DNA from: Parcubacteria group bacterium
GTDB taxonomy: Bacteria > Patescibacteriota > Minisyncoccia > Phycocordibacterales > CSBR16-119
DNA: 64,000 nt
Reading direction: 5' to 3'
NCBI GenBank assembly: GCA_943356745.1
Contig: CALRFT010000002.1
Location: 7,124-71,123 of the forward strand
Shown: positions 3,980 through 18,671 of the stretch, one piece after another
Numbering within the stretch: the first letter of the stretch is position 1
How the letters are laid out: the number at the start of each line of letters is the position of its first letter
Notes under the pieces: generated by a model
The model's database searches: none
What the model saw: the letters and a program-made list of their open reading frames with translations, nothing else
What the model was told of the DNA's origin: nothing
Made by a program: the position numbers and the translations under genes

Positions 3980-5233
3980 ATGGCAAAAATTAATTCAGAC
4001 GTAGAAACTTTTGCACGCATCAAAGTTATCGGAATTGGTGGTTCAGGTGGAAATGCAATAAACCACATGATCACTCGTGGAGTACAAGGTGTTGAATTCA
4101 TTGCAATGAACACGGACGTGCAAGATCTTCACCACTCAAAAGCAGATAAGAAAATTCATCTTGGTAAAAATCTCACCAAGGGACTTGGTGCTGGAATGAA
4201 TCCAGAAATTGGACGAAAAGCAGCAGAAGAAACCCGATCAGAAATTCAAGATTTCGTAAAAGGATCAGATATGGTGTTTATCACAGCTGGAATGGGAGGA
4301 GGAACAGGAACAGGAGCTTCTCCAACTGTTGCGCGAGCTGCGAAAGAACAAGGGATTCTCACTGTTGCAGTTGTAACACGACCTTTCTTCTTTGAAGGTA
4401 ATCAACGACTTCGAATTGCGGATGAAGGTATCCGAGCACTTGAAAAAGAAGTTGATGCCATCATTACAATTCCAAACGACCGACTCCTTCAAATCACTGA
4501 AAAAAATACAAGCTTCAATGAAGCCTTTGAAATGGTAGATGAAATCTTGCGACAAGCAGTAGAAGGTATTTCTGATATCATTACAAACCCAGGAAAAATC
4601 AACGTGGACTTTGCAGATATCAAAGCAATCATGGCAGACGCAGGATCAGCACTCATGGGAATCGGATATGCAGCTGGAGAAGGCCGAGCAGAAAATGCAG
4701 CGCTTCAAGCAATCAATTCCCCACTTCTTGAAATCTCAATCAATGGAGCAAAAGGAGTTCTTTTCTCTGTTGCAGGAAGTGAAGATCTTGGAATCCAAGA
4801 AATTCAAGCGATTGCAAAAATCATTACTGAATCAATCGACAAAGACGCAAAAGTTATTTGGGGTAAAACTCAAGATGACAAACTCAAAAAAGGAGAAATC
4901 CGAGTTACTGTTATCGCAACAGGTTTTCCAAATAGCACACAAAGAAAATCTTTGTTTGGTGCTCAACAGCAACAACAAATGATGTCAGCAACGACTTCAC
5001 GACCAAAAGAAGAGACTCGAGAAGAAATGATTGTTGAAGAAGAGACACAAGAAAGAAAATCTCAAAGACGAGAAGAACCAAAAGAAATTCGAAACTCTAT
5101 CCCAAAGGTAGAAGATTTTGAAGAACTGAAAGTACCAGAAAAAGAACCTATTGAAATTGTCGACGGTGATGATTTTGAAGAGGATGACGAAGACTGGTCA
5201 GCGGTTCCAGCGTTTCTACGAAGAAAGAAATAA
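3980..5233 (+). CDS. ftsZ: Cell division GTPase FtsZ
   Basis: IGIGGSGGNAINHM start and the tubulin signature GGGTGTGASP. Acidic C-terminal tail. Confidence 0.95.
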   Translation: MAKINSDVETFARIKVIGIGGSGGNAINHMITRGVQGVEFIAMNTDVQDLHHSKADKKIHLGKNLTKGLGAGMNPEIGRKAAEETRSEIQDFVKGSDMVFITAGMGGGTGTGASPTVARAAKEQGILTVAVVTRPFFFEGNQRLRIADEGIRALEKEVDAIITIPNDRLLQITEKNTSFNEAFEMVDEILRQAVEGISDIITNPGKINVDFADIKAIMADAGSALMGIGYAAGEGRAENAALQAINSPLLEISINGAKGVLFSVAGSEDLGIQEIQAIAKIITESIDKDAKVIWGKTQDDKLKKGEIRVTVIATGFPNSTQRKSLFGAQQQQQMMSATTSRPKEETREEMIVEEETQERKSQRREEPKEIRNSIPKVEDFEELKVPEKEPIEIVDGDDFEEDDEDWSAVPAFLRRKK

Positions 5234-5244
5234 TTACTCACCCA

Positions 5245-5270
5245 AAAACCGCATGAATGTGCGGTTTTTG
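5245..5270 (+). terminator. Rho-independent terminator after ftsZ
   Basis: aaaaaccgcatgaatgtgcggttttt hairpin followed by a T-run. Confidence 0.6.
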
Positions 5271-5299
5271 ATTTACTTAATCATGTATAATACCAAAGT

Positions 5300-6370
5300 A
5301 TGCGAATAATAGAAGAAACAAAACTAGATTATCAGGATGTATTACTTCGTCCAAAACGAAGTACTCTCACATCTAGAAAAGATGTTGATCTTGAACGTGA
5401 GTTTACTTTTTACCATTCCCCAAAAACATGGAAAGGAATTCCAATCATGACAGCAAACATGGCAACCTGTGGAACTTTTGAAATGGCACAGGTTCTAGCT
5501 CCGTACAAAATGATTACAACATTTCACAAATACTACACTGTAGAACAATTTGAAGAGTTTTTCAAAAGTTTTAATAACCCAGATTATGTTGCCTATACAC
5601 TTGGAATTCGTGATGAAGATTTTGAAAAATTAAAAATAATGCAAGAAAAAGATTTATTGAAACATTTTTCTTTTATCTGTCTCGACGTTCCAAATGGATA
5701 TCTTCAAAAATTTTTAGACGCCATTAAAATGGTTCGTACAATCTGCAAGGAACATATTATCATTGCTGGAAATGTTGTTACAAATGAAATGGCAGAAGAA
5801 ATTATTCTCGCTGGAGCAGATATTGTGAAGGTTGGAATAGGTCCTGGTTCTGCTTGTACAACCCGAAGACAAACGGGTGTTGGATATCCACAACTTTCAG
5901 CTGTGATTGAGTGTGGTGACGCAGCACATGGAATGTCAAACTCTCAAGGGGTTGGACGAATCATTGCAGATGGAGGACAACAGTTCCCTTCTTGTGTAGC
6001 GAAAGCATTTTGTGGTGGTGCAGATTTCAATATGTTTGGATCAATGTTTTCTGGATTTGAAGAAAGTGGAGGAAATTTGATTGAAAAAGATGGAAAACAA
6101 TTCAAAGAATATTTTGGATCTTCTTCAAACAAAGCAATGGAAGAATTTTATGGGAAAAAAGATTCGCACCGAGCAAGTGAAGGGCGATACACACTCATTC
6201 CATTCAAAGGAAGTATTCATAATTTCATTCAAGACCTTCTTGGCTCACTTCGAAGTACTGGAACATATATCGGCGCACAATTTCTGAAAGAATTCCCCAA
6301 ACGAGCAACTTTTATTCGAGTAAACAGACAGCTCACAACCTATCTAGAAACTTTTGATACGGGAAAATAA
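5300..6370 (+). CDS. guaC: GMP reductase (IMPDH/GMPR family)
   Basis: N-terminus [23 protein letters not shown] matches the GuaC start. TIM-barrel IMPDH/GMPR motifs [19 protein letters not shown]. Confidence 0.7.
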
Positions 6371-6391
6371 GCCTCTCAAGAGACTTGACTC

Positions 6392-7330
6392 ATGTGCTAT
6401 AATACAAATATGACTTACGAATTAATCATTATCGGAGGTGGACCAGCAGGATGCTCTGCTGCTGTTTACGCTGCACGAAAAAAACTTAAAACCTTACTCA
6501 TCACCTCAGAATGGGGCGGGCAATCAATAGTTTCTGAAACAATCTACAACTGGATTGGAACACCTGAGATCTCAGGTCATGATCTTGCCGAAAGTTTCAA
6601 AAAACATGTTGAATACTATCAAGGAGAAGATCTAGAACTCAAAACTGGATCATATGTAGAAAAGGTAGAAAAAACAGCTGAAGGATTTAAGGTATCTCTT
6701 TCAAATGGAGAATCTTTTGAAACAAAAACAATTCTCATCTCTTCTGGATCAGGACGACGAAAACTTGAAGTAAAAGGTGCTGATGTTTTGGAACACAAAG
6801 GACTTACCTACTGCGCAACCTGTGACGGACCGCTATTTTCTGGACAAGATGTCGCTGTCATTGGTGGAGGAAATGCTGCCTTTGAAAGTGCTTCACAACT
6901 TGCTCAGTATTGCAAAAGTGTAACCATTATTCACCGAGGTTCTGAATGGAGAGCAGAAGCAGTAACGGTTGAAAAAATTCTTGCAAGACCAAATGTAAAA
7001 TCAATCATGAATGCAGACACAACAGAAGTCTATGGAGAAAAATTTGTTGCTGGAATGAAATATAAAGATAAGGAAGGAAATGAACATGATCTTCCCGTAA
7101 CAGGTATCTTTGTTGAAATTGGACAAATTCCAAATACTGGAATTGCAAGTGAGGTAGTTGAGCTTGATGACTACAAACGAATCAAAATCGACTACGCAAC
7201 CCAAAAGACCACCACTCCTGGAATTTGGGCTGCTGGAGATTGCACCAATGTCCTCTATCACCAAAACAACATCGCAGCTGGAGATGCAGTTCGAGCACTT
7301 GAGGATATATACAAATACTTACACGCATAG
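6392..7330 (+). CDS. trxB: Thioredoxin reductase. The likely true start is the MTYEL Met at 6410.
   Basis: FAD-binding motif IIGGGPAGCSAA and redox-active CATCDG. Confidence 0.85.
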   Translation: MCYNTNMTYELIIIGGGPAGCSAAVYAARKKLKTLLITSEWGGQSIVSETIYNWIGTPEISGHDLAESFKKHVEYYQGEDLELKTGSYVEKVEKTAEGFKVSLSNGESFETKTILISSGSGRRKLEVKGADVLEHKGLTYCATCDGPLFSGQDVAVIGGGNAAFESASQLAQYCKSVTIIHRGSEWRAEAVTVEKILARPNVKSIMNADTTEVYGEKFVAGMKYKDKEGNEHDLPVTGIFVEIGQIPNTGIASEVVELDDYKRIKIDYATQKTTTPGIWAAGDCTNVLYHQNNIAAGDAVRALEDIYKYLHA

Positions 7331-7341
7331 CGCATACAAAG

Positions 7342-7366
7342 AACCCACCTTGAGTGGGTTTTTTGT
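7342..7366 (+). terminator. Rho-independent terminator after trxB
   Basis: aacccaccttgagtgggtttttt. Confidence 0.6.
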
Positions 7367-7425
7367 ATGTATTGACATAATTATATAATATTATATAATA
7401 TAAAAAATATTTAAAACTTAAGACG

Positions 7426-7683
7426 ATGAATAAAACAAACTCTCGAAAAGTAACTGAAACCAACTGGGAAAACCTCTTTATTGGGCTTATCGCACTTTTA
7501 TTATCTACAGCATCATTGTGTATCTTCATTGTTAATGCATTCAATCTAGAGTGGTCTTTTCCCGGGACTCTCGTAAGAGATATCCCCACCACCACAACTG
7601 CCCTTTTGGTATTCGCATTTACTCTTCTTCCTGCAGTTATTGCATTTCAAAACAGTAAAAGCGTTAGAACTGAGTGGTGCTAA
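7426..7683 (+). CDS. Hypothetical small membrane protein
   Basis: 85 aa with two hydrophobic helices. A terminator follows at 7708-7738. Confidence 0.3.
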   Translation: MNKTNSRKVTETNWENLFIGLIALLLSTASLCIFIVNAFNLEWSFPGTLVRDIPTTTTALLVFAFTLLPAVIAFQNSKSVRTEWC

Positions 7684-7796
7684 CATATTCAAAAGTATGA
7701 TCTTTCCCAAAACCCTTCTTCTGAAGGGTTTTTGTTTTATCTTTACATAAATACATATTTATGTCACAATAGCACCAAACCCTAAAATGTTATTTT

Positions 7797-8486
7797 ATGT
7801 CTCAAAAACAACTACGTTTCTTAAGTGATGGAACTCTTTGTTCCCTTTTTTCTCAAGGTTCTGTTAAAAGAAAACCTCGAATTGATCCATTTCTTTTCTG
7901 TGAATTTATTAAAAAAGACCAGGTGATAATTTTTAAAAAAGAAAAGATTCGCAAATTTATCATGGGAACCCTAGCGGTAAGCATAGTGTTCTCTGTTGGA
8001 CTTTTTGTGTTCAATTTTATCGATGAAGGAATTCTGGGAGTTTGTCTAACAATGTCTTTTATCGGAAGCCTCATGGTACATTACCTTTTGTTTCCCAAAG
8101 AAGACAGGAATAAAAAAACAAACAAAGAATACAGGGAAGCATTTTTCTCAATTCTTGAAAAAGAACAAACTCTTACTGAAGTCGGACTGAAAGAAATCTT
8201 TTACAGCCTCATTAAGCGAATCCAATTTTTAATGATTGGAGAGAAGAAATCTTCAACAGAAAATTTAAATCGAATCAAAAACATTATCTACTGCATCAAC
8301 CAGACACACGAAGAGAGAGGTATTGTATTAAAAGTTCCGTCAAATTTTAGTGGTATTTGTTCCCAGCTAAAACAACTGTTTCCCCAAGATGCCGACATTG
8401 ATCAATTCATTCAACAGCAATCTTTTATCATTCCCCCTGGAGTTACAGTAGACAAAACCATTCACATTGAAGAAACTCTTGCGTAA
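7797..8486 (+). CDS. Hypothetical membrane protein
   Basis: 229 aa with predicted TM helices near the N-terminus. A terminator follows at 8494-8528. Confidence 0.35.
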   Translation: MSQKQLRFLSDGTLCSLFSQGSVKRKPRIDPFLFCEFIKKDQVIIFKKEKIRKFIMGTLAVSIVFSVGLFVFNFIDEGILGVCLTMSFIGSLMVHYLLFPKEDRNKKTNKEYREAFFSILEKEQTLTEVGLKEIFYSLIKRIQFLMIGEKKSSTENLNRIKNIIYCINQTHEERGIVLKVPSNFSGICSQLKQLFPQDADIDQFIQQQSFIIPPGVTVDKTIHIEETLA

Positions 8487-8552
8487 AGCAAGGAACCGCG
8501 TCGCACAAGCGACGCGGTTTTTATTTTTCCCATTTATGAGTATAATCAAACC

Positions 8553-9179
8553 ATGCAAGGTTTCAGTGAACTCTTCTCAAATATTCTTTTCAGTCTTGGG
8601 CCAGTAACTCGAGAAGTTTTCATATTCTTTCTTGGTTATATCGAAGGACTTCCAATCATCGGCTCTCTTGTTCCTGGTGGCACCATGGCAATCCTCATCG
8701 GTAGTCTTTCAAAGGATGGATACATTGCCCCACTTCTCGCTATCAACCTCATTGCTCTTGGAAGTTTCCTCGGTGACCTCACAGGTTTTGTCTTTGGAAA
8801 ACAACTTCGAAAACTTGAATATGTAAAAAAGATGATGGAAAGTGAGAAGAACAAAAAACACTGGGATGTTTTTGACAGACACATTGCACTTGTAATCATC
8901 ATCGGAAAGGTTTTGCCGGTTGTGAGATCTACTCCTTCTCTTTTTGCAGGAATGCGAAAAATTCCTATTCATCGGTACGTAATCTACACACTCATCGGAT
9001 CATATCTTTGGGCTGTGATTGGAATCTATTCAGGAAGTGCTCTTGCAAATATTCTCGGGGACTATGCAGTACCAGTCATCATTCTCACAGTATTCGTACT
9101 TACATTTGGAAGTTTTGCTTACAATAAAATCAAAAAATATCAAAAACAAAAAAGACAAATAAAAGAAGCCGTCGAGTAA
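8553..9179 (+). CDS. DedA/SNARE-associated family membrane protein
   Basis: Multi-pass membrane protein with the DedA-like motif pattern (LGYIEGLPIIGSLVPGGTMAIL ... GKQL). Confidence 0.65.
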   Translation: MQGFSELFSNILFSLGPVTREVFIFFLGYIEGLPIIGSLVPGGTMAILIGSLSKDGYIAPLLAINLIALGSFLGDLTGFVFGKQLRKLEYVKKMMESEKNKKHWDVFDRHIALVIIIGKVLPVVRSTPSLFAGMRKIPIHRYVIYTLIGSYLWAVIGIYSGSALANILGDYAVPVIILTVFVLTFGSFAYNKIKKYQKQKRQIKEAVE

Positions 9180-9197
9180 ACTCGACGGCTTTTGTTT
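9166..9197. terminator. Bidirectional terminator hairpin between dedA (+) and the TrpF-like gene (-)
   Basis: aagccgtcgagtaaactcgacggctttt with A/T runs on both sides. Confidence 0.55.
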
Positions 9198-9970
9198 TAA
9201 ACTCTCACCCCTTGAAAAAGCGGAATAGACGCTTCCAAATACTTACGAACCTCGGAAAGATCCAAACCACCATGAGCAGCCTGCAACTTCCCTTCTGCAT
9301 CGGTAGAAATGTCTGGATACTGGTTTACAATATCAAGCAATTTCTGCTGAACATTTTCAGGAGATAAACCTCCTGCAACTCCGACTCCAAGATATGAAAT
9401 CGGACTAAACTCAGAAACAAGACTACCAATTTTTTGATGATCCAAATCGAGACCTCTTCCTCCCGACATATCAAGAAGAATGTGATCAATCGCTCTGTCG
9501 TATCCTAGAACAGCTTGGTAAATTTGTGTAAGGTCATTTCCTTTTTGAGAAAAAGCCTCATGTCCAACCTGAAGAACAAATTCAGCATTAGGATACTTTT
9601 CCTTATACCTCAGCAAATGTTCTTTGTCAGGCCAAGCCATATTGAGCTGAAACCCATGAAGGTTCTCACCTGCAAGTTGTGTGATTTGCATCAAATCATC
9701 AAAAAGGTTTGTAGGGTTATCACTTGAAAAATGAACCAAGTTGAGACAACCTTCATCATTCGTAAAAATTGATCCCAAATCTGTCATTTTTGGATATCGC
9801 AGAGGCCATTTGTTTTGAATTCCTTGCAAAGTCTTTGAACTCACAAGGACTCCGACCATTAAACGTCTTCCGACTATCGACGGATGAGTGTTTCGATTTT
9901 TGAGAACAATTTCAACTTGTCCTTGGTTCATAAAACCAGTAACTCCAATGTAGGGTGTTTTTTTATTCAT
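9197..9970 (-). CDS. Phosphoribosylanthranilate isomerase (TrpF)-like TIM-barrel protein
   Basis: Segments resemble the PRAI consensus: IGVTGF (KICGit), LHGFQ (qLHG.E), LLDMSGGRGLDLD (lLDa..GGtGk.fdW), VAGGLSPENV (lAGGlnpeNv). Confidence 0.45.
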   Translation of the reverse strand: MNKKTPYIGVTGFMNQGQVEIVLKNRNTHPSIVGRRLMVGVLVSSKTLQGIQNKWPLRYPKMTDLGSIFTNDEGCLNLVHFSSDNPTNLFDDLMQITQLAGENLHGFQLNMAWPDKEHLLRYKEKYPNAEFVLQVGHEAFSQKGNDLTQIYQAVLGYDRAIDHILLDMSGGRGLDLDHQKIGSLVSEFSPISYLGVGVAGGLSPENVQQKLLDIVNQYPDISTDAEGKLQAAHGGLDLSEVRKYLEASIPLFQGVRV

Positions 9971-10006
9971 AAAAGTACAATTTAAAGGGTTTATTTAAAT
10001 CATACT

Positions 10007-10537
10007 CTAGCATAAAAACCCACAAATCGAAAACACCTCGCAAGAGGTGTTTTTGATTTGTATAGCCATACGTTCACGAACCCCTTTCAAAAACATATCA
10101 GGATTATTTTTAATTTCTTTTTTTAGCTCTTCTTCCGTAAACCACCTTATTTCAGCGACCTCATCTTCTTGTATTGTAAAATCATTAAATCCAGAAGGTA
10201 ATGTTAACAAAAATTCCTGACTAAAATATTGATACTTTGTACTAACTCTTCTCTTCTTTCCAAGAATAGGCTTTATGTTTACAAGTCCTAATTCTTCTTG
10301 AGACTCTTTTATAATATTTTCTTCATAAGTTTCATTTTCTTCAACAGTTCCCGCAACTGCTGGTCCCCATTTACCTGGATCATGTTTTTTATGAAGTGCC
10401 CGTTTTGCAAGTAATATTTTTCCATCGGTATCAGTGATCCACAAGTAAGAAACACGGTAGATAGAATTCTCATCACGACCGTCTCTTTCTTTGTAATCTA
10501 TAATGTTGTCATTTTCATCAACTATCGGTATTTTCAT
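10007..10537 (-). CDS. NUDIX hydrolase
   Basis: Nudix box GTVEENETYEENIIKESQEELGL (Gx5Ex7REuxEExGu). The last ~15 codons are encoded by a palindromic terminator hairpin. Confidence 0.75.
   Translation of the reverse strand: MKIPIVDENDNIIDYKERDGRDENSIYRVSYLWITDTDGKILLAKRALHKKHDPGKWGPAVAGTVEENETYEENIIKESQEELGLVNIKPILGKKRRVSTKYQYFSQEFLLTLPSGFNDFTIQEDEVAEIRWFTEEELKKEIKNNPDMFLKGVRERMAIQIKNTSCEVFSICGFLC
10012..10051. terminator. Palindromic bidirectional terminator-like hairpin (copy 1)
   Basis: acaaatcgaaaacacctc-gcaa-gaggtgtttttgatttgt. ~18 bp stem with A/T runs on both sides. Confidence 0.5.
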
Positions 10538-10685
10538 GTTTAAATATTATCACAAAAACAGCTCCGAAAGGAGCTGTTTTGTATGCTTCTCGTGCTAGCA
10601 CGAAATGGTGACCCCTCTCCGAGGACTGCGTTTTACATACAATCGCTTTGCTCTTGTGTAAAACGGGAGCCTCCGGTACCCTCCG

Positions 10686-10733
10686 GGTCACAAATCAAAA
10701 ACACCTCTTGCGAGGTGTTTTTGATTTGTGACC
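10686..10733. terminator. Palindromic bidirectional terminator-like hairpin (copy 2, near-identical to 10012-10051)
   Basis: ggtcacaaatcaaaaacacctc-ttgc-gaggtgtttttgatttgtgacc. Perfect 22 bp stem. Confidence 0.5.
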
Positions 10734-10842
10734 CCAAGACCTGGATTTCAGAACTTGTTAAGGAAAGTTTAACAATAAAATCCAGCATAAGCGATCTCCA
10801 AGGTATCTTTGTGAATAGCCCCTATAATTTAGCTAGGCAAAG

Positions 10843-11493
10843 TTAATCTTTTTGCTTTCCGATCAGTTTTGCAAATGATCTTGCAATTGGTTCACCTAGA
10901 TGAACCACAAATAAACCGTCAATAGAAAGCTCCTCTTTTATGTCCCAAAAGAAACGCTCGATCCTTTTAGTTATTCTTCTCAGATATCTTGGGTCAAATT
11001 GTACAGGTCTATTAATCTGCATATGACCATTCTCATGGATGTTTAGTTTGGTATTAAAGTGAGCAACCTGGTTACCTCTGGCTCGAACAAGAGGATTGAT
11101 GCTGAGTTTTATGGCTTTCAATCTTTTTAGATATCTATTCTTAATCTTTACATCTTGTATATGATCTACCAGTGTAAAAAGAGAGGATGTTTGCTTATCT
11201 TCATCTAATATATTTCCCAAAATGATGATGGCATCACGAGAATAAACATCCCATAAAGAAATGACAAATGTGGTTGTAATCTTAGGATTGGAGTCTTTGA
11301 CGATAAAATCGTCCTTGTGTTTAGCTAGATACTGCAGTAACTCAGCATGATCAAGCAATCGACTTGTACTACTAAAAATATAATCTGTTATATTTCTTAG
11401 CTTTCTTTCTTCACTTATTGTTACCTTTTTCTTTTGGCTCATATTAATTAGTTGGAATAAGTTTATCAGTCCAAGACTTCTTATCTTCCTCAT
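10843..11493 (-). CDS. Uncharacterised protein co-operonic with the Gabija-like pair. Has an R-x5-H motif (possible HEPN-like RNase). The likely true start is the Met at 11442.
   Basis: The ATG at 11442 lies 1 nt after the upstream helicase stop (TAA-T-ATG). Motif VRARGNQVAHF is at 11059-11079. No recognisable family otherwise. Confidence 0.5.
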   Translation of the reverse strand: MRKIRSLGLINLFQLINMSQKKKVTISEERKLRNITDYIFSSTSRLLDHAELLQYLAKHKDDFIVKDSNPKITTTFVISLWDVYSRDAIIILGNILDEDKQTSSLFTLVDHIQDVKIKNRYLKRLKAIKLSINPLVRARGNQVAHFNTKLNIHENGHMQINRPVQFDPRYLRRITKRIERFFWDIKEELSIDGLFVVHLGEPIARSFAKLIGKQKD

Positions 11494-13168
11494 CAGGTAC
11501 TGCGATTACTAGAACTTTGCTCGGTCGAGAGATTGCTACATACACATTCCTCAACTCCTCATCCTGAGACACGCTACTAGTTTCAAGAAGAGTTTTATAG
11601 TTTTTAGAAACTTTCTTCTTCAGGAATAGTAGGACAGCTTCGAATGTTTCTCCTTTGACTTTATGAATGGTGCTTAATCTATAGTCACGCTGAATATTGT
11701 CCGTGTATTCTTGGGGAAATACACGAGAAAATTCGAGTTCTTTTGCCTCTGTGTTGTATGTGAAAGTGATAGGAATTTCAATTGATTTGAGCTGTTCACT
11801 GGCTGATTGAAGCCAAGCGCCTAGTTTAATATTTGTAAGCGGAAGAACTGCGAGTATAGCCTTGATTTCTTTTCTGAACTCAACAAAACCACGTTCATCA
11901 TGGAAATCATCCAAATCTTTTTCCGAGCAATAGTGTGCTTTCTTTAGAAATTTAAAGTAGCCCTTTTCTATATACTTTATTCCTCGATTGTAATCTTTGT
12001 TGTCTATGAGAAACTTGCCGATAGCAAAATCTCTTGCATAAGGACAACTATTTAACCAAGGCTTAATTTCTACGGTAAATGTGCCAGGAATAAAAAATCC
12101 TTTCGATCTAGCTAAGACTACAGTGGTTTTGGGTGTAATTTCTATGTCATTGGCTTTACATTTCTCTATAAAGTTCTTTACGATATCTTTTGTTTGTCCG
12201 TCAGTGTATGTGATAACCTCTGGCATACATTCAAAGTCCTTTACATCAACATTCGTTGCCAATATCTTGTTATCTCCCAATGAAGACAGGTTGTATACGG
12301 CATTACAAATTTTTTCTGAACTTCTCCAACTTTCATCAAGCACAATAGAGTTATCTTTCCAAAGTACTTGCTTCTCGATGAAAAGCTCTGGCTTTGCATT
12401 ATTCCATTCGAAGATTGCTTGATCAGGATCACCAACTAGCATTACATTTTGATCTGCATTTTCCGCTATTAATAATTCGATTATCTTCATTTGTATGTCG
12501 GTCGTATCCTGTGCCTCATCGACAATTAACCAAGGAAACTTCGAGGCAAGACTTTTTCTTACTGCGGGATATTTTTCAAGAATGACCATTGCGAAATAGT
12601 TTGCATCTGACTGAGTTGCGTAACCTTTCTTAGTAAACGCATCTTTCATCTGCTTCAATTTGAGATAGTTCTTATTTTCATCTCCGCCCTGGTTTAGTTT
12701 CGGCGGGAACGCTCCATGAAAATACTTTCTTTCTTTTCCATAAAGATCGCCATTTATTTCGTAACTTACTTTGTCAAAATAGTAAGGTGCGTCCTGGTCA
12801 TTCATACCCAGTCCCCATACACCATATGGTTCTCCAACCATAACGGGTCTTTGGTCGCAACCTAATACTAAATGCCCAAATGGAAGAAAGATGAATTTAT
12901 TTATAAAGCTATCAATTGTTCCGAGAAAGTGAGGGTAAGATACTTTTGTATTAAAATCTTCAGCACACTTCTTTTCGATTTCTTGCCAAGCAGTGTTAGT
13001 AAAAGAGATCGTGGCAATCCCTTGGTGTGGCAAAGTCCAATTTGAAATTAGCTTTGAAAGCTTTGCTGAAACACAGTATGTCTTTCCGCTCCCAGGACAG
13101 GCACGAACGACAAATTTACCCGTTCTATCGAGGACAACTTTTTGTTTGGTTGATAATTTCTCATACAT
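11444..13168 (-). CDS. gajB: UvrD/PcrA-like SF1 DNA helicase (Gabija GajB-like)
   Basis: Walker A ACPGSGKT, motif II LIVDEAQD, motif III VGDPDQAIFEW, motif V IHKVKGETFE, motif VI VYVAISRP. The start overlaps the stop of the upstream OLD-family gene. Confidence 0.8.
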   Translation of the reverse strand: MYEKLSTKQKVVLDRTGKFVVRACPGSGKTYCVSAKLSKLISNWTLPHQGIATISFTNTAWQEIEKKCAEDFNTKVSYPHFLGTIDSFINKFIFLPFGHLVLGCDQRPVMVGEPYGVWGLGMNDQDAPYYFDKVSYEINGDLYGKERKYFHGAFPPKLNQGGDENKNYLKLKQMKDAFTKKGYATQSDANYFAMVILEKYPAVRKSLASKFPWLIVDEAQDTTDIQMKIIELLIAENADQNVMLVGDPDQAIFEWNNAKPELFIEKQVLWKDNSIVLDESWRSSEKICNAVYNLSSLGDNKILATNVDVKDFECMPEVITYTDGQTKDIVKNFIEKCKANDIEITPKTTVVLARSKGFFIPGTFTVEIKPWLNSCPYARDFAIGKFLIDNKDYNRGIKYIEKGYFKFLKKAHYCSEKDLDDFHDERGFVEFRKEIKAILAVLPLTNIKLGAWLQSASEQLKSIEIPITFTYNTEAKELEFSRVFPQEYTDNIQRDYRLSTIHKVKGETFEAVLLFLKKKVSKNYKTLLETSSVSQDEELRNVYVAISRPSKVLVIAVPDEEDKKSWTDKLIPTN

Positions 13169-13171
13169 AGA

Positions 13172-14926
13172 TTATTCATTTTTTACAGCATACTTTATGG
13201 CATCCTGAATATAAGTTGGAATAACAAAATTTGTCAGAGCACCCGCATCTTCTTCAAGTCGAATTGATAACCGATGCGCCAACTCTGATTTGCCCTGCTG
13301 GTCTGCCACTTTTTTAGCAAAGTTTTTTGCATATGTCGGAATGTCAGCGTCCACAGTAATGGTAGTTTTTGGATGAAATTCTTTATATATCTCTAAAAGA
13401 ATTTGTCTGTTGAAATCACTTGCCAAGAATAGTTCGTATTCAAAAGTGACTGCACCAACGAAGACTTTCAGTAAGTTATTTTCCATTGCCTTTATCTTTG
13501 TTGCCCTTGGTGATCCATCGTCATCGTCCTTTGTTCTATCGTCATCAGTGATAATCGAACATCTATTTTTAAGACCTTTTTCTGGTTTTGCAGAATTGTA
13601 TAACTTTGCAAAATGTTCAAACGCAATTCCGTTTATATTTACAATTTCACAACCTGCTTTCTCCACATCGTAATCCGCACCCATTTTTCTACTAAAAACT
13701 GGAAGAAGTAGGGCTTCAGAAATACCCTCTACAAATATGACGCTATTTGCAAAGAATAACTGTGACTTCGTAACATCTAAGAACTTGTGCAGAAATTTTT
13801 TATTCGCTTCGTCTAGGTCTGAGTTTCTTAATGAAAGTGCAGATATTTCACCAGCTTGATGTTGCAAAACGTTGATTGAATTTAAATCTGCCTTAGCAGT
13901 AATTGTTGGAGAGTGTGAAGAAACAAAAATCTGAAAGTCCTTGTCTGTAGCAAGTTCATTTAGGTAGTTAAAAAATAGGTCTTGGAGCTGAGGATGGAGG
14001 TGAGCTTCTGGTTCTTCAATCAAGAGAGAAAAGTACGCTTCTGGTTCAATCTCTTTTTTCTGTTTTATGTCACCTAAAACTGTGGCTATATAAATCAAGT
14101 TATTATAACCAAGACCGTTTTGCCAAATGCTTAAATATTTCTGTTCATTCGATGGATCGAGTTTAAGTACTTCTTCTGAAAAGAATGGTAACTGAACATG
14201 TAAATTATTTAAGATATCACCAAATTCTAGTCCGCTAAAAGTAACCTCAATCTCTTGCTTCTTATCAAGAAAGGTTGTTCTGCCAAGATGCTCGTTTACT
14301 TTTTCCTTACCCTTAGTAATAAAATCTTTCCATTTGTCACCTTTAAGTACGGTTCTGACCTCTGTTGCTAAAGCTTGCTTCTCAGCTTCAGTATGAGATT
14401 GTGTATCACCGTACAAACGAGCCAATTTGCTATCTCTAAATGGTTTCAAAAATTGTTCTGCGTCACGTAGGGCATCGAGATGAACATAATTTATGAGCTG
14501 TAAAATTTCTGTAGAGATTTGCTGTCCCTCATTTGTTCCGCCCCAGACTTTGTATTTCAGTTTATTTTTCTCATCAAGGTAGTATTTTAAATGAAGCTGT
14601 AAATCTGCCTTATCGTTCTCATCTATAGCCAATAGCTCTCTGTATATAACAGGCTCGAGATCATCTTCTATTTCAAAATGCAGATCAAAAATCGTTTCAT
14701 TCTTTGCATCTTTAGGATCAGACTTGTTTATGTAAAAATCACATTCCTTTGAGAAGTAAATATCTCTCCTGATACTTCCGTATCCAAGGCAAAGTCGTAA
14801 GGCATCAATGATTGCAGTTTTACCTGCATTGTTTTCTCCAATAAGAATATTTAACCCCTTGTTAAAATCTAAGGAGAGTTCTTTGATTGATCTAAATCTA
14901 TTAATTTTTAGTTCTTTTATATACAT
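13172..14926 (-). CDS. gajA: OLD-family ABC ATPase plus TOPRIM nuclease (Gabija GajA-like / class 2 OLD)
   Basis: N-terminus IKELKINRFRSIKELSLDFNKGLNILIGENNAGKTAIIDAL (Walker A). LLIEEPEAHLHPQLQ (Walker B/H-loop typical of OLD/GajA). C-terminal TOPRIM motifs VIFVEGISE and IITDDD. Confidence 0.85.
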   Translation of the reverse strand: MYIKELKINRFRSIKELSLDFNKGLNILIGENNAGKTAIIDALRLCLGYGSIRRDIYFSKECDFYINKSDPKDAKNETIFDLHFEIEDDLEPVIYRELLAIDENDKADLQLHLKYYLDEKNKLKYKVWGGTNEGQQISTEILQLINYVHLDALRDAEQFLKPFRDSKLARLYGDTQSHTEAEKQALATEVRTVLKGDKWKDFITKGKEKVNEHLGRTTFLDKKQEIEVTFSGLEFGDILNNLHVQLPFFSEEVLKLDPSNEQKYLSIWQNGLGYNNLIYIATVLGDIKQKKEIEPEAYFSLLIEEPEAHLHPQLQDLFFNYLNELATDKDFQIFVSSHSPTITAKADLNSINVLQHQAGEISALSLRNSDLDEANKKFLHKFLDVTKSQLFFANSVIFVEGISEALLLPVFSRKMGADYDVEKAGCEIVNINGIAFEHFAKLYNSAKPEKGLKNRCSIITDDDRTKDDDDGSPRATKIKAMENNLLKVFVGAVTFEYELFLASDFNRQILLEIYKEFHPKTTITVDADIPTYAKNFAKKVADQQGKSELAHRLSIRLEEDAGALTNFVIPTYIQDAIKYAVKNE

Positions 14927-15010: not shown

Positions 15011-15233
15011 TGCTAGAATGAGATTACAGTTGAATACAGTCGCCTAACCCTTGGCATCGAAAACCAAGGCATGGCGCAAAACCCGCTAAAGTGTAAAAAC
15101 CTCCTCGTCAGGAGTCACTTTAGCGGTCATACCTGGAAACGGGTATGGGTTCAGCCGAAAGGTTGGATCGCAACTGGCGAGGAGATTTTTGCATCTTCTC
15201 GGATTATTAGTCTCATAAAAACCGCTAAAGTTT
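15011..15233 (+). ncRNA. GC-rich structured 5' leader (candidate cis-regulatory RNA or riboswitch-like element) upstream of the 141-aa ORF
   Basis: Extended -10-like TGCTAGAAT at 15011-15019. Nested hairpins: ccttgg...ccaagg; ccgctaaagtg...cactttagcgg enclosing ctcct-cgtc-aggag; cagcc-gaaa-ggttg. A third copy of ccgctaaagt at 15222-15231 abuts the start codon and gives mutually exclusive pairing. Confidence 0.4.
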
Positions 15234-16916: not shown

Positions 16917-18552
16917 AAATGAGTATCTGATCTACTCACGTAAGAGTACGGACGATGCTATTAATCAAAAGAACTCCATTTCCTATCAAGTAGTGGAGGC
17001 ACTTAAATATGCAAAGCATGAGAGACTGCCGATTGCGAAAGTTGATATTGAGGGATTTTGTACAGAGGGCATTATCCGTGAAAGACATACGGCATTTAAA
17101 GAAGACGATAATCTTAATTTTAGTGATGATGGATATATAAAATATCGTATACAAAGACCCAAGTTTAAACGCCTAGTCGATGCTCTGGTTAAAGGAGAAT
17201 ACAAAGGCGTAATTTTTTTATGTTGGGATCGTGCCAGTCGCAACAAGAGTGATAACAGTGTTATTTCAAAGATGATAAATCTTGGAGTTGATGTACTATT
17301 TGTTCAGGCGACATACGAAAAAACTAGCTCTGGTGGTCTTCATATGAATATCGATGGTGTCTTCTCTGAGCATTACTCACTGGTGATTAGAGAGAAAGTA
17401 ACGAACACGAGAAAGAAAATGAGAGACGAGGGTATCTGCACTTACAAAGCCCCGATAGGATATTTAAATAATGGCGATCCTCGCCACAAGCCTTTTGACC
17501 CAGATCGTTCACCACTCGTAAAACAACTTTTTGAAAAATACGCTGAGGGAAATTGGACACTTGCTGATCTTGCACGTTGGGCTAATGAGAACGGTTTGAT
17601 CACTGTACCTGCTCGTCGAAAGAGAACGGAGCAGGAAATGTTGATGGACGATGAGGTTACAATAGATGCGGTCTCTCGTCCTATGACGTTTAATCATATC
17701 CATAAGATATTAACTAACCAGTTCTATATAGGTAAAGTATTAGGAAACGAAAACCAATGGGTGAAAAGTGTTAGTCATGCCCCGCTTGTTGATGAAGATT
17801 TATTTTATAGAGTTCAGGGATTGCTCCGTTCAAAGAAAGTTAGTGTCCACTACAAAACCAAGCCTTATTTCGCCTACAGAGGGCTTGTACGGTGTGGAGA
17901 GTGCCACAGAGTGTATTCGCCTTACATGCAGAAAGGTATAGCGTATTATGGCGCACGATGCATTCTTGGCTGTAAGAATAAGAACCGTAATATAAACGCT
18001 AATTTCATTGAGGAGAAAGTGGGATCAAAGCTATTTAACCTCAATTTCACTAAAGAAGAATTGGCTGATATCGATCGTCAGACCAGAGGTGAAGTTGCTA
18101 CTCTCGATGATAAGCGCAGGGGGCGTTTAAATGTTATTGATCAAGAGAAACGAAAGCTTCGAGATGATCTATCGTACTTACGCAACAATAAATTGTCTCT
18201 GCTTAAAAATCAGGTCTATAGCCATGAAGAATATCTTGAACAAGAGAGTGACATTGCTTCTAAACTTCAAAAGCTGAGGAATGAAGAAGAAGCATCGGAT
18301 GTTTCGATGCAAGAAGTCATTAGAGATGTGGTTCTACTTTCCGAACTCCTAGAAGACGCTTATTTGTATTACTCTTTGGCAAATCCAACAGAAAAGCAAC
18401 AAATAATAACGAAAGTCTTTTCCGAACTTACATTATTTGGTAAAACCCTTGATTACCAATGTAAAAACGGTTTTAAAGTCTTCGAGAAGAAGAAAAATAT
18501 CTTGTGTGACCCTACGGAGAATCGAACTCCGATTTCCAGGATGAAAACCTGA
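16840..18552 (+). CDS. Large serine recombinase (integrase)
   Basis: Catalytic motif LIYSRKSTDDAINQKNSISYQ (YxRxST...SxxxQ). RPKFKRLVDALVKGEYKGVIFLCWDRASRN (DRLSR-like). Recombinase domain, zinc ribbon CGECHRV...CILGC and a C-terminal coiled coil. The last ~15 codons are encoded by the tRNA-Glu 3' half. Confidence 0.85.
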   Translation: MKLAKSYEPHEKELMPQNKDKNNPHKNEYLIYSRKSTDDAINQKNSISYQVVEALKYAKHERLPIAKVDIEGFCTEGIIRERHTAFKEDDNLNFSDDGYIKYRIQRPKFKRLVDALVKGEYKGVIFLCWDRASRNKSDNSVISKMINLGVDVLFVQATYEKTSSGGLHMNIDGVFSEHYSLVIREKVTNTRKKMRDEGICTYKAPIGYLNNGDPRHKPFDPDRSPLVKQLFEKYAEGNWTLADLARWANENGLITVPARRKRTEQEMLMDDEVTIDAVSRPMTFNHIHKILTNQFYIGKVLGNENQWVKSVSHAPLVDEDLFYRVQGLLRSKKVSVHYKTKPYFAYRGLVRCGECHRVYSPYMQKGIAYYGARCILGCKNKNRNINANFIEEKVGSKLFNLNFTKEELADIDRQTRGEVATLDDKRRGRLNVIDQEKRKLRDDLSYLRNNKLSLLKNQVYSHEEYLEQESDIASKLQKLRNEEEASDVSMQEVIRDVVLLSELLEDAYLYYSLANPTEKQQIITKVFSELTLFGKTLDYQCKNGFKVFEKKKNILCDPTENRTPISRMKT

Positions 18553-18578
18553 TGTCCTAACCGTTAGACGATAGGGCC
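18507..18578 (-). tRNA. tRNA-Glu (anticodon TTC)
   Basis: Cloverleaf GGCCCTA-TC-GTCT-AACGGTT-AGGAC-A-TCAGG-TTTTCAT-CCTGG-AAAT-CGGAG-TTCGATT-CTCCG-TAGGGTC-A. Anticodon loop TTTTCAT. T-loop GTTCGATTC. Confidence 0.8.
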
Positions 18579-18624
18579 AATATAACTTGTGACTTTCCAG
18601 AAATTTTGTTATTTTCAGGTTTTT

Positions 18625-18671
18625 GAAAACCTGATGTCCGCTTATCATCTTTCTGGTTAGACGATAGGGCC
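18625..18671 (-). pseudogene. Partial tandem copy of the tRNA-Glu 5' half (acceptor 5' strand to anticodon stem) with an altered D-loop
   Basis: gaaaacctgatgtcc...ggttagacgatagggcc matches 18543-18578 but carries a 15-nt replacement in the D-loop region. No T-arm or 3' acceptor strand. Confidence 0.5.

Follow-up and report, generated by a model that had tools for sequence, protein, structure and literature searches.

The gene that was the focus of this study lies at the 3' end of a minus-strand operon, immediately behind gajA and gajB, in the window (the whole stretch of 64,000 nt that was analysed, to which all positions below refer unless a locus number, L001-L034, is given). The features of this region and of the loci compared with it are listed in Table 1. 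On the minus strand, the open reading frame extends over 10843-11493 (216 aa) when read from the first ATG, and over 10843-11442 (199 aa) when read from the ATG at 11442; the stop codon occupies 10843-10845. The position 11442 is the likely start because, in an alignment of 48 sequences (the window protein and 47 homologues), the homologues begin at the 199-aa position, their M-x-x-K-K-K aligning with this start. The same start had been chosen in an initial annotation of this DNA, and the other elements described there (the open reading frame, an R-x5-H motif encoded at 11059-11079, and the gap of 1 nt after the helicase stop) were all confirmed in the sequence; residues R139 and H145 of that annotation, numbered from the 216-aa start, correspond to R122 and H128 here. 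The third gene, referred to below as the HEPN gene, is intact and under purifying selection: dN/dS values among the window gene and two close relatives were 0.13, 0.07, and 0.06.

Table 1. Features of the window and of the compared loci. Positions without a locus number are those of the window.
Feature	Location	Strand	Basis or remark
HEPN gene: 199-aa AbiU2-family protein, predicted metal-independent RNase	10843-11442	-	ORF, Pfam, hhalign, dN/dS, AF2
Codons of R122-G-N-Q-V-A-H128, R-x5-H catalytic signature of HEPN domains	11059-11079	-	Conservation, AbiU2 alignment
gajB/HEPN junction: gajB stop TAA 11446-11444, one T (11443), HEPN ATG 11442	11443-11446	-	
gajB, UvrD-type helicase of Gabija	11444-13168	-	PADLOC GajB PDLC00138 6e-179, full length; Pfam UvrD-helicase 3e-31
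gajA, OLD-family ATPase-TOPRIM nuclease	13172-14926	-	PADLOC GajA PDLC00091 4e-157, full length; Pfam AAA_15, OLD-like_TOPRIM
Perfect 23-bp hairpin, GCAA loop	10685-10734		Inverted repeat and RNA fold; 109 nt past HEPN stop
Micro-ORF, 87 aa, convergent with HEPN gene, stops overlapping	10583-10846	+	Conserved peptide, codon-position substitutions
LOOT RNA (Rfam RF03000)	15041-15169	+	114 nt upstream of gajA, divergent from gajA
LOOT RNA copies at 5' border of defence operons	L002 2549-2665; L024 499-619; L028 3011-3130		
Large serine recombinase gene, 570 aa	16840-18552		3' end overlaps tRNA-Glu
tRNA-Glu	18506-18578	-	Overlaps serine recombinase gene
Type III Mod-Res	L002		Upstream of/adjacent to HEPN homologue
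N6/N4 methylase and ResIII helicase (and transposase), type III R-M	L030		Upstream of/adjacent to HEPN homologue
C5 methylase and HpaII endonuclease	L032, L033		Upstream of/adjacent to HEPN homologue
Adenine methylase and DUF262/HNH protein	L011; L003, L012, L013		Upstream or downstream of HEPN homologue
ResIII and PDDEXK nuclease	L023		Upstream of/adjacent to HEPN homologue
GmrSD fragments	L031		Upstream of/adjacent to HEPN homologue
SocA_Panacea protein and 146-152-aa protein	L004, L019, L020, L022		Upstream of/adjacent to HEPN homologue
AbiV HEPN gene	L016		Upstream of/adjacent to HEPN homologue
RNase H gene	L015		Upstream of/adjacent to HEPN homologue
PrsW-like membrane protein	L007-L010, L017		Upstream of/adjacent to HEPN homologue
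Other neighbours	L001, L005, L014		Upstream of/adjacent to HEPN homologue

The two upstream genes, previously described only as Gabija-like, were found by PADLOC to encode full-length GajA and GajB with their catalytic motifs present: a Walker A motif (GENNAGKT) in the gajA product, GSGKT and DEAQD in the gajB product, and the Walker A, Walker B, and TOPRIM signature residues in the pair. The HEPN ATG is joined straight onto the gajB stop codon, and the HEPN gene is therefore very probably co-transcribed with gajA-gajB in the window lineage; it is perhaps also translationally coupled to them. No promoter-like site was recognised before the HEPN start within gajB, and no Shine-Dalgarno sequence was recognised before the ATG. 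The junction in L018 and L021 was identical to that in the window (1-nt gap). At the beginning of L021 (1-576), a fragment of an IS3-like DDE transposase replaces the first 319 gajB codons, and the downstream HEPN gene is intact.

The initial annotation had recognised no family for the third protein; AbiU2 is a described family, to which the protein is related at the profile level, with the motif aligned. Pfam HEPN_AbiU2 (PF18734) was the sole credible family match (E = 9e-4), with a score of 19.2 bits that falls below the gathering cut-off of 26.8 and covers profile positions 3-141 of 193, and scans of the protein with PADLOC, NCBIfam, and PHROGs gave nothing significant (no family, or only E = 0.07). 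Among 5.8 billion proteins, 47 homologues with 38-96% identity were found, nearly all of ~190-225 aa and nearly all without a name or recorded as "hypothetical protein"; the named sources (Lloydbacteria, Nomurabacteria, and Saccharibacteria) are all Patescibacteria. PF18734 was matched at E < 0.01 by 29 of the 48 sequences, the best E value being 2e-6. When a profile of this clade was searched against 1.84 billion cluster representatives, only 18 proteins were detected at E <= 0.001, and distant matches of the clade profile (P0174, P0176, P0178, P0179, and P0181) exceeded the PF18734 cut-off (29.5-49.9 bits). The remote-homology search that had been suggested with the initial annotation led to the same family: in hhalign, the clade was linked to an alignment of seven AbiU2 hits, four of them clearly above the Pfam cut-off and three below, with a probability of 99.6% (E = 1e-24), and RGNQVAH of the clade aligned with R-N-x-x-V-A-H of the AbiU2 proteins. 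Judged from these profile comparisons, the window protein is a HEPN protein of the AbiU2 family, divergent within it, from a clade seen only in Patescibacteria (CPR) in a small sample (48 homologues with the window protein included, ~16 contexts).

The motif is encoded within VRARGNQVAHF, with the codons of R122 and H128 at 11079-11077 and 11061-11059, respectively. Since an R-x4-6-H occurred once or more in 80% of 20,000 shuffles of the window protein (mean 1.5; observed 1), the motif alone has no evidential weight, and it was dropped as evidence by itself after this shuffling test. In the 48-sequence alignment, R122 and H128 were invariant (48/48) and N124 was conserved in >90% of the sequences; other invariant residues were D65, Y67, and S68 of the DVYSRD block, and S86 and S87. 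The AF2 model of the protein, built as a monomer, was all-helical (pLDDT 86.8, pTM 0.82), with helices at 11-41, 58-78, 88-93 (short), 98-113 continuing as 117-127, and 151-171. In the model, residues 122-128 span the junction between the third long helix and the loop that leads to the 151-171 helix, and the invariant D65 falls in the helix of 58-78, i.e. helix 2. In HEPN domains, the motif is located where helix 3 ends, and an acidic residue is present in helix 2 (Anantharaman et al., PMC3710099), and the placement predicted by the model agrees with this description. A Foldseek search of the predicted structure against the PDB returned no significant match, fold searches giving generic helical bundles, and the clade profile, when searched against the sequences of all PDB chains, had no match below E = 0.1. 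The initial annotation had guessed a HEPN motif, and had named the conservation of R and H and a predicted all-alpha fold as checks; this guess was borne out by the invariant R/H pair and a predicted helical fold in which helix 3 ends at the motif, together with the profile link to AbiU2.

Thirty-four loci were compared, and the homologues occupied 16 distinct contexts. GajA and GajB were searched for by tblastn (E <= 1e-3) in L001-L029, and through the recorded Pfam hits of called genes in L030-L034. Besides the window, gajB was located upstream of the HEPN gene only in L018 (96% identity) and L021 (86% identity), and one of the 16 contexts, that of the window's own lineage, contained Gabija. 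In the 15 other contexts, in which the homologues show 38-72% identity, neither GajA nor GajB was found by these searches, and about half of them contained restriction-modification (R-M) or GmrSD-type genes. A tblastn search against 72,556 plasmids gave no match. A trio consisting of a SocA_Panacea protein (162-214 aa), an unannotated protein of 146-152 aa, and the HEPN gene recurs in L004, L019, L020, and L022, and could represent a Panacea toxin-antitoxin pair to which the HEPN cassette was appended; in L022, the HEPN ATG lies 1 nt past the preceding stop, as in the window. A TATAAT-like box 13 nt before the ATG in L007, L009, and L012 was considered as an own promoter of stand-alone cassettes; the consensus scan did not call it, and no such promoter is claimed.

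The closest relatives of GajB (89, 71, 69, and 58% identity) each have a neighbouring GajA (92-66% identity), but none of these four loci contains the third gene. In blastn, the similarity of the window to the locus of the 89% relative (L024/L026) stops at 11443, the single T that separates the HEPN ATG from the gajB stop, and its similarity to L018 or L021 ends at 10839 or 10843, respectively, at the HEPN stop. It follows from the breakpoints at 11443 and at the HEPN stop that the HEPN ORF is a precisely bounded insert or replacement. The flanks downstream of gajA-gajB-HEPN differ among the window, L018, and L021; a shared block with differing flanks, the 1-nt junction, and the lack of a recognised promoter or Shine-Dalgarno sequence all fit a unit moving together, so that a functional coupling to GajAB retains some probability. 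The initial annotation had suggested an undescribed three-component Gabija variant, and had proposed the co-occurrence of homologues with gajAB as a check: this co-occurrence held for the two near-identical relatives (96 and 86% identity) only and failed in all 15 other contexts, where no OLD/UvrD pair was found. A three-component system thus fails as a conserved entity, and the idea of such a variant is not supported.

The hairpin behind the HEPN gene is likely a two-way terminator of the operon; the RNA fold of the surrounding region (10660-10845) has an energy of -73 kcal/mol (z = -6.7). Homologous cassettes carry differing hairpins at the corresponding place, and the stretch of 109 nt that separates the hairpin from the HEPN stop is conserved in many otherwise unlike loci. 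Near-identical palindromic hairpins of 41 nt with a GCAA-type loop (10021-10061 and 10689-10730) flank a Nudix hydrolase gene (10007-10537), and could represent a terminator that is repeated or else a small hairpin element that is mobile.

In 13 loci (the window, L002, L003, L007-L013, and L032-L034), the peptide of the convergent micro-ORF was detected just behind the HEPN gene, on the opposite strand, with the consensus G-D-P-x-x-W-L-S-E-L-x3-R-D-Y-I..., and substitutions at codon positions 1, 2, and 3 were distributed as 101:60:145, a coding-type pattern. In the window, the conserved part (DPKTWISEL...) extends from 10730 as far as the stop. The micro-ORF is interrupted here, in frame, by 120 nt of inserted DNA (10616-10735) that contain the hairpin; copies of the direct repeat GTGACCCC, at 10608-15 and 10728-35, flank this insert. 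Called relatives in the database are 36-47 aa long (one 79 aa), several of them starting with MLLVLAR[IN]GDP. A remnant of a larger gene was considered and rejected, every database relative being short and the loci containing no longer paralogue. Since the micro-ORF is absent after intact HEPN genes in L018, L021, L014, and L015, it cannot be an essential antidote; in L007 and L009, it has no canonical start. Another peptide, VVEDVRTVFE.LNDATIYIP, occupies the place of the micro-ORF in L001, L004, L019, L020, and L031.

We consider it probable (roughly 70%) that the HEPN gene is functional and represents a mobile AbiU2-HEPN cassette fused to the 3' end of gajAB, probably acting alone and not as a conserved part of Gabija. 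The clade would then be a self-contained cassette of defence islands, consisting of the HEPN gene, often with the convergent micro-ORF and a terminator, which would attach 3' of many unrelated immune operons, most often of the restriction-type, DNA-targeting kind; in the window lineage, the HEPN ATG would have been joined directly onto the gajB stop codon. The protein may dimerise as other HEPN domains do, and R122, H128, and N124, together with D65 of helix 2, may form a metal-independent RNase site. When an infection has passed the DNA-targeting first line (here GajAB), the putative RNase, presumably independent of GajAB itself, would cut host or phage RNA and thereby stop growth, an outcome of the abortive-infection type. 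To our knowledge, there is no AbiU2 protein with demonstrated RNase activity. AbiU2 HEPN genes were listed "in R-M operons" in the HEPN survey of 2013 (Anantharaman et al. 2013, PMC3710099), in which a two-layer strategy was proposed: restriction first, and then shutdown by an RNase if restriction fails.

Several alternatives were weighed against the mobile cassette. The 1-nt junction points to co-expression, there being no promoter-like site upstream of the HEPN start in gajB, the trio was found together on three contigs with three differing downstream flanks, and type II Gabija, which consists of GajB and a MazF-like GajC (PMC13069673), offers a precedent for GajB combined with a predicted RNase; these points favour a true three-component Gabija, in which the HEPN RNase would be a second effector licensed by GajAB and sensing would release the cleavage of both DNA and RNA. 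Such a system is nevertheless unlikely, because the association is confined to at least 86% identity, i.e. one lineage, GajA and GajB are missing from every other context, the four closest GajAB loci lack the HEPN gene, homologues elsewhere have their own upstream regions, and the RNase of type II Gabija replaces GajA, which is retained here. There is a similarly small chance that, in the window lineage, GajAB and HEPN form one integrated system, in which Gabija would gate an RNA-cutting arm or HEPN would tune Gabija, and that the micro-ORF is an undescribed regulator of AbiU2-type HEPN cassettes. If this is true, the GajAB-HEPN integration would be a natural intermediate toward type II Gabija-like systems, with a helicase driving an RNase.

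It is quite improbable, although a live alternative in view of AbiUii, that the HEPN protein is a negative modulator and dampens the DNA-targeting system encoded upstream, for instance through cleavage of the mRNA of its own operon. According to what PMC13064643 summarises of Dai et al. 2001, the founding AbiU2 protein, AbiUii of Lactococcus, lowered the resistance due to AbiUi, that is, reduced its activity; AbiUi is described as nuclease-like, and the order of a nuclease gene followed by AbiU2 recurs here and in R-M contexts. This is, however, a single old observation on a distant relative; the variety of upstream partners is too great for a regulator acting by specific protein-protein contact, and the invariant residues of the catalytic type point to an enzyme. 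Numerous HEPN proteins act as the toxin in toxin-antitoxin pairs (PMC3710099), and the conserved micro-ORF that overlaps the HEPN 3' end in 13 loci, with its coding-type substitutions, might be read in this sense: a HEPN toxin, with the micro-ORF or an antisense transcript as the antidote, would form an addiction module that stabilises the island and has no anti-phage role. We regard this as very unlikely given that the HEPN genes followed by no micro-ORF (L018, L021, L014, and L015) are intact and selected, that the micro-ORF lacks a canonical start in two loci and is interrupted in the window, and that no MNT-type partner was identified, the flanks in the window being gajB and non-coding DNA, and no nucleotidyltransferase match appearing among those neighbours of homologues for which a Pfam result was available. 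That the protein is no HEPN enzyme, and instead a helical protein of other function with a structural R..H pair, is most improbable: the score below the Pfam cut-off, the generic helical bundles returned by the fold searches, and a motif expected by chance are in its favour, but they are opposed by the strong profile-level link to AbiU2, by R, N, H, and the aspartate of helix 2 being invariant or nearly so, and by every context being a defence island.

Gabija reportedly consists of GajA and GajB. The proposed cassette is preceded here by these two genes in full length, but Gabija is a two-gene system, and the third gene is absent from the PADLOC models as well as from the closest GajAB loci. 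The proposed cassette resembles AbiU2/AbiUii (PF18734; PMC3710099) in the R-N/G-x-x-V-A-H motif, in the length (~190-220 aa among the relatives examined), and in the location within or behind R-M operons, whereas it differs in belonging to a divergent clade limited to Patescibacteria, in its position behind Gabija, and in the convergent micro-ORF that often accompanies it. Type II Gabija (PMC13069673) also encodes a GajB-type helicase beside a predicted RNase; however, this RNase has a MazF fold and replaces GajA, whereas the window keeps GajA and adds a HEPN domain. The single-gene abortive-infection proteins AbiV, AbiD, AbiF, and AbiJ, and HEPN genes embedded in R-M, BREX, or Hachiman loci (HEC-08 is an example), resemble the present case in that a HEPN protein that is small or stands alone is encoded in a defence island, but AbiV, AbiD, AbiF, AbiJ, and HEC-08 belong to HEPN families other than the window clade. 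Mutation of the motif histidine in HEC-08 abolished defence (bioRxiv 10.1101/2024.01.29.577857), which by analogy, and from another HEPN family, may support the idea of an embedded or appended defence gene. HEPN-MNT toxin-antitoxin systems share a HEPN domain with R-x4-6-H, and differ in that the neighbours of the HEPN gene in the window are gajB and non-coding DNA; no match to a nucleotidyltransferase was found among ten upstream neighbours of homologues scanned against Pfam, nor among the called genes with recorded Pfam hits.

No description of a Gabija-HEPN operon was found among the top-ranked literature mentioning both terms. What is new is a divergent, Patescibacteria-restricted member of AbiU2 behind Gabija; the family and the role of an appended gene are known, HEPN genes attached to DNA-targeting defence operons having been described since 2013 (PMC3710099), and this is not a new kind of system. 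Through this analysis, 48 related proteins predicted in CPR bacteria, the defence repertoire of which is poorly charted, can be placed in a family. It also provides a clean example of the assembly of defence islands, with one HEPN cassette behind type II/III restriction, GmrSD-type, Panacea, and Gabija genes, and sometimes, apparently, at one shared chromosomal hot spot but beside another partner system. These varied contexts support the earlier proposal that DNA-targeting immunity is backed up by an attached layer that cuts RNA, and the case advises caution, in that tight operon spacing is not proof of a multi-component system.

The surroundings of the operon have further features of mobile DNA. 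Two 16-nt pieces of the tRNA-Glu are repeated at 18624-18639 and 18656-18671, and the serine recombinase/tRNA-Glu region together with the Gabija-HEPN block looks like a tRNA-associated mobile island. In L028, two serine recombinase genes flank GajAB. The four copies of LOOT RNA score 69-87 bits (cut-off, 46), each closes with its own terminator, and the ORFs downstream of them are unrelated; LOOT RNA could mark an insertion hot spot of islands. In L032 (3645-9260), an HTH gene, a C5 methylase, an HpaII endonuclease, and the HEPN gene adjoin trxB-ftsZ-ftsA, and in the window (3980-11442), Gabija and the HEPN gene are separated from ftsZ and trxB by a few kb: apparently, L032 and the window share one chromosomal hot spot, in which the first-line system was swapped. 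Downstream of the HEPN gene, a gene for a 257-aa protein (9197-9970 in the window) is present in both the window and L001.
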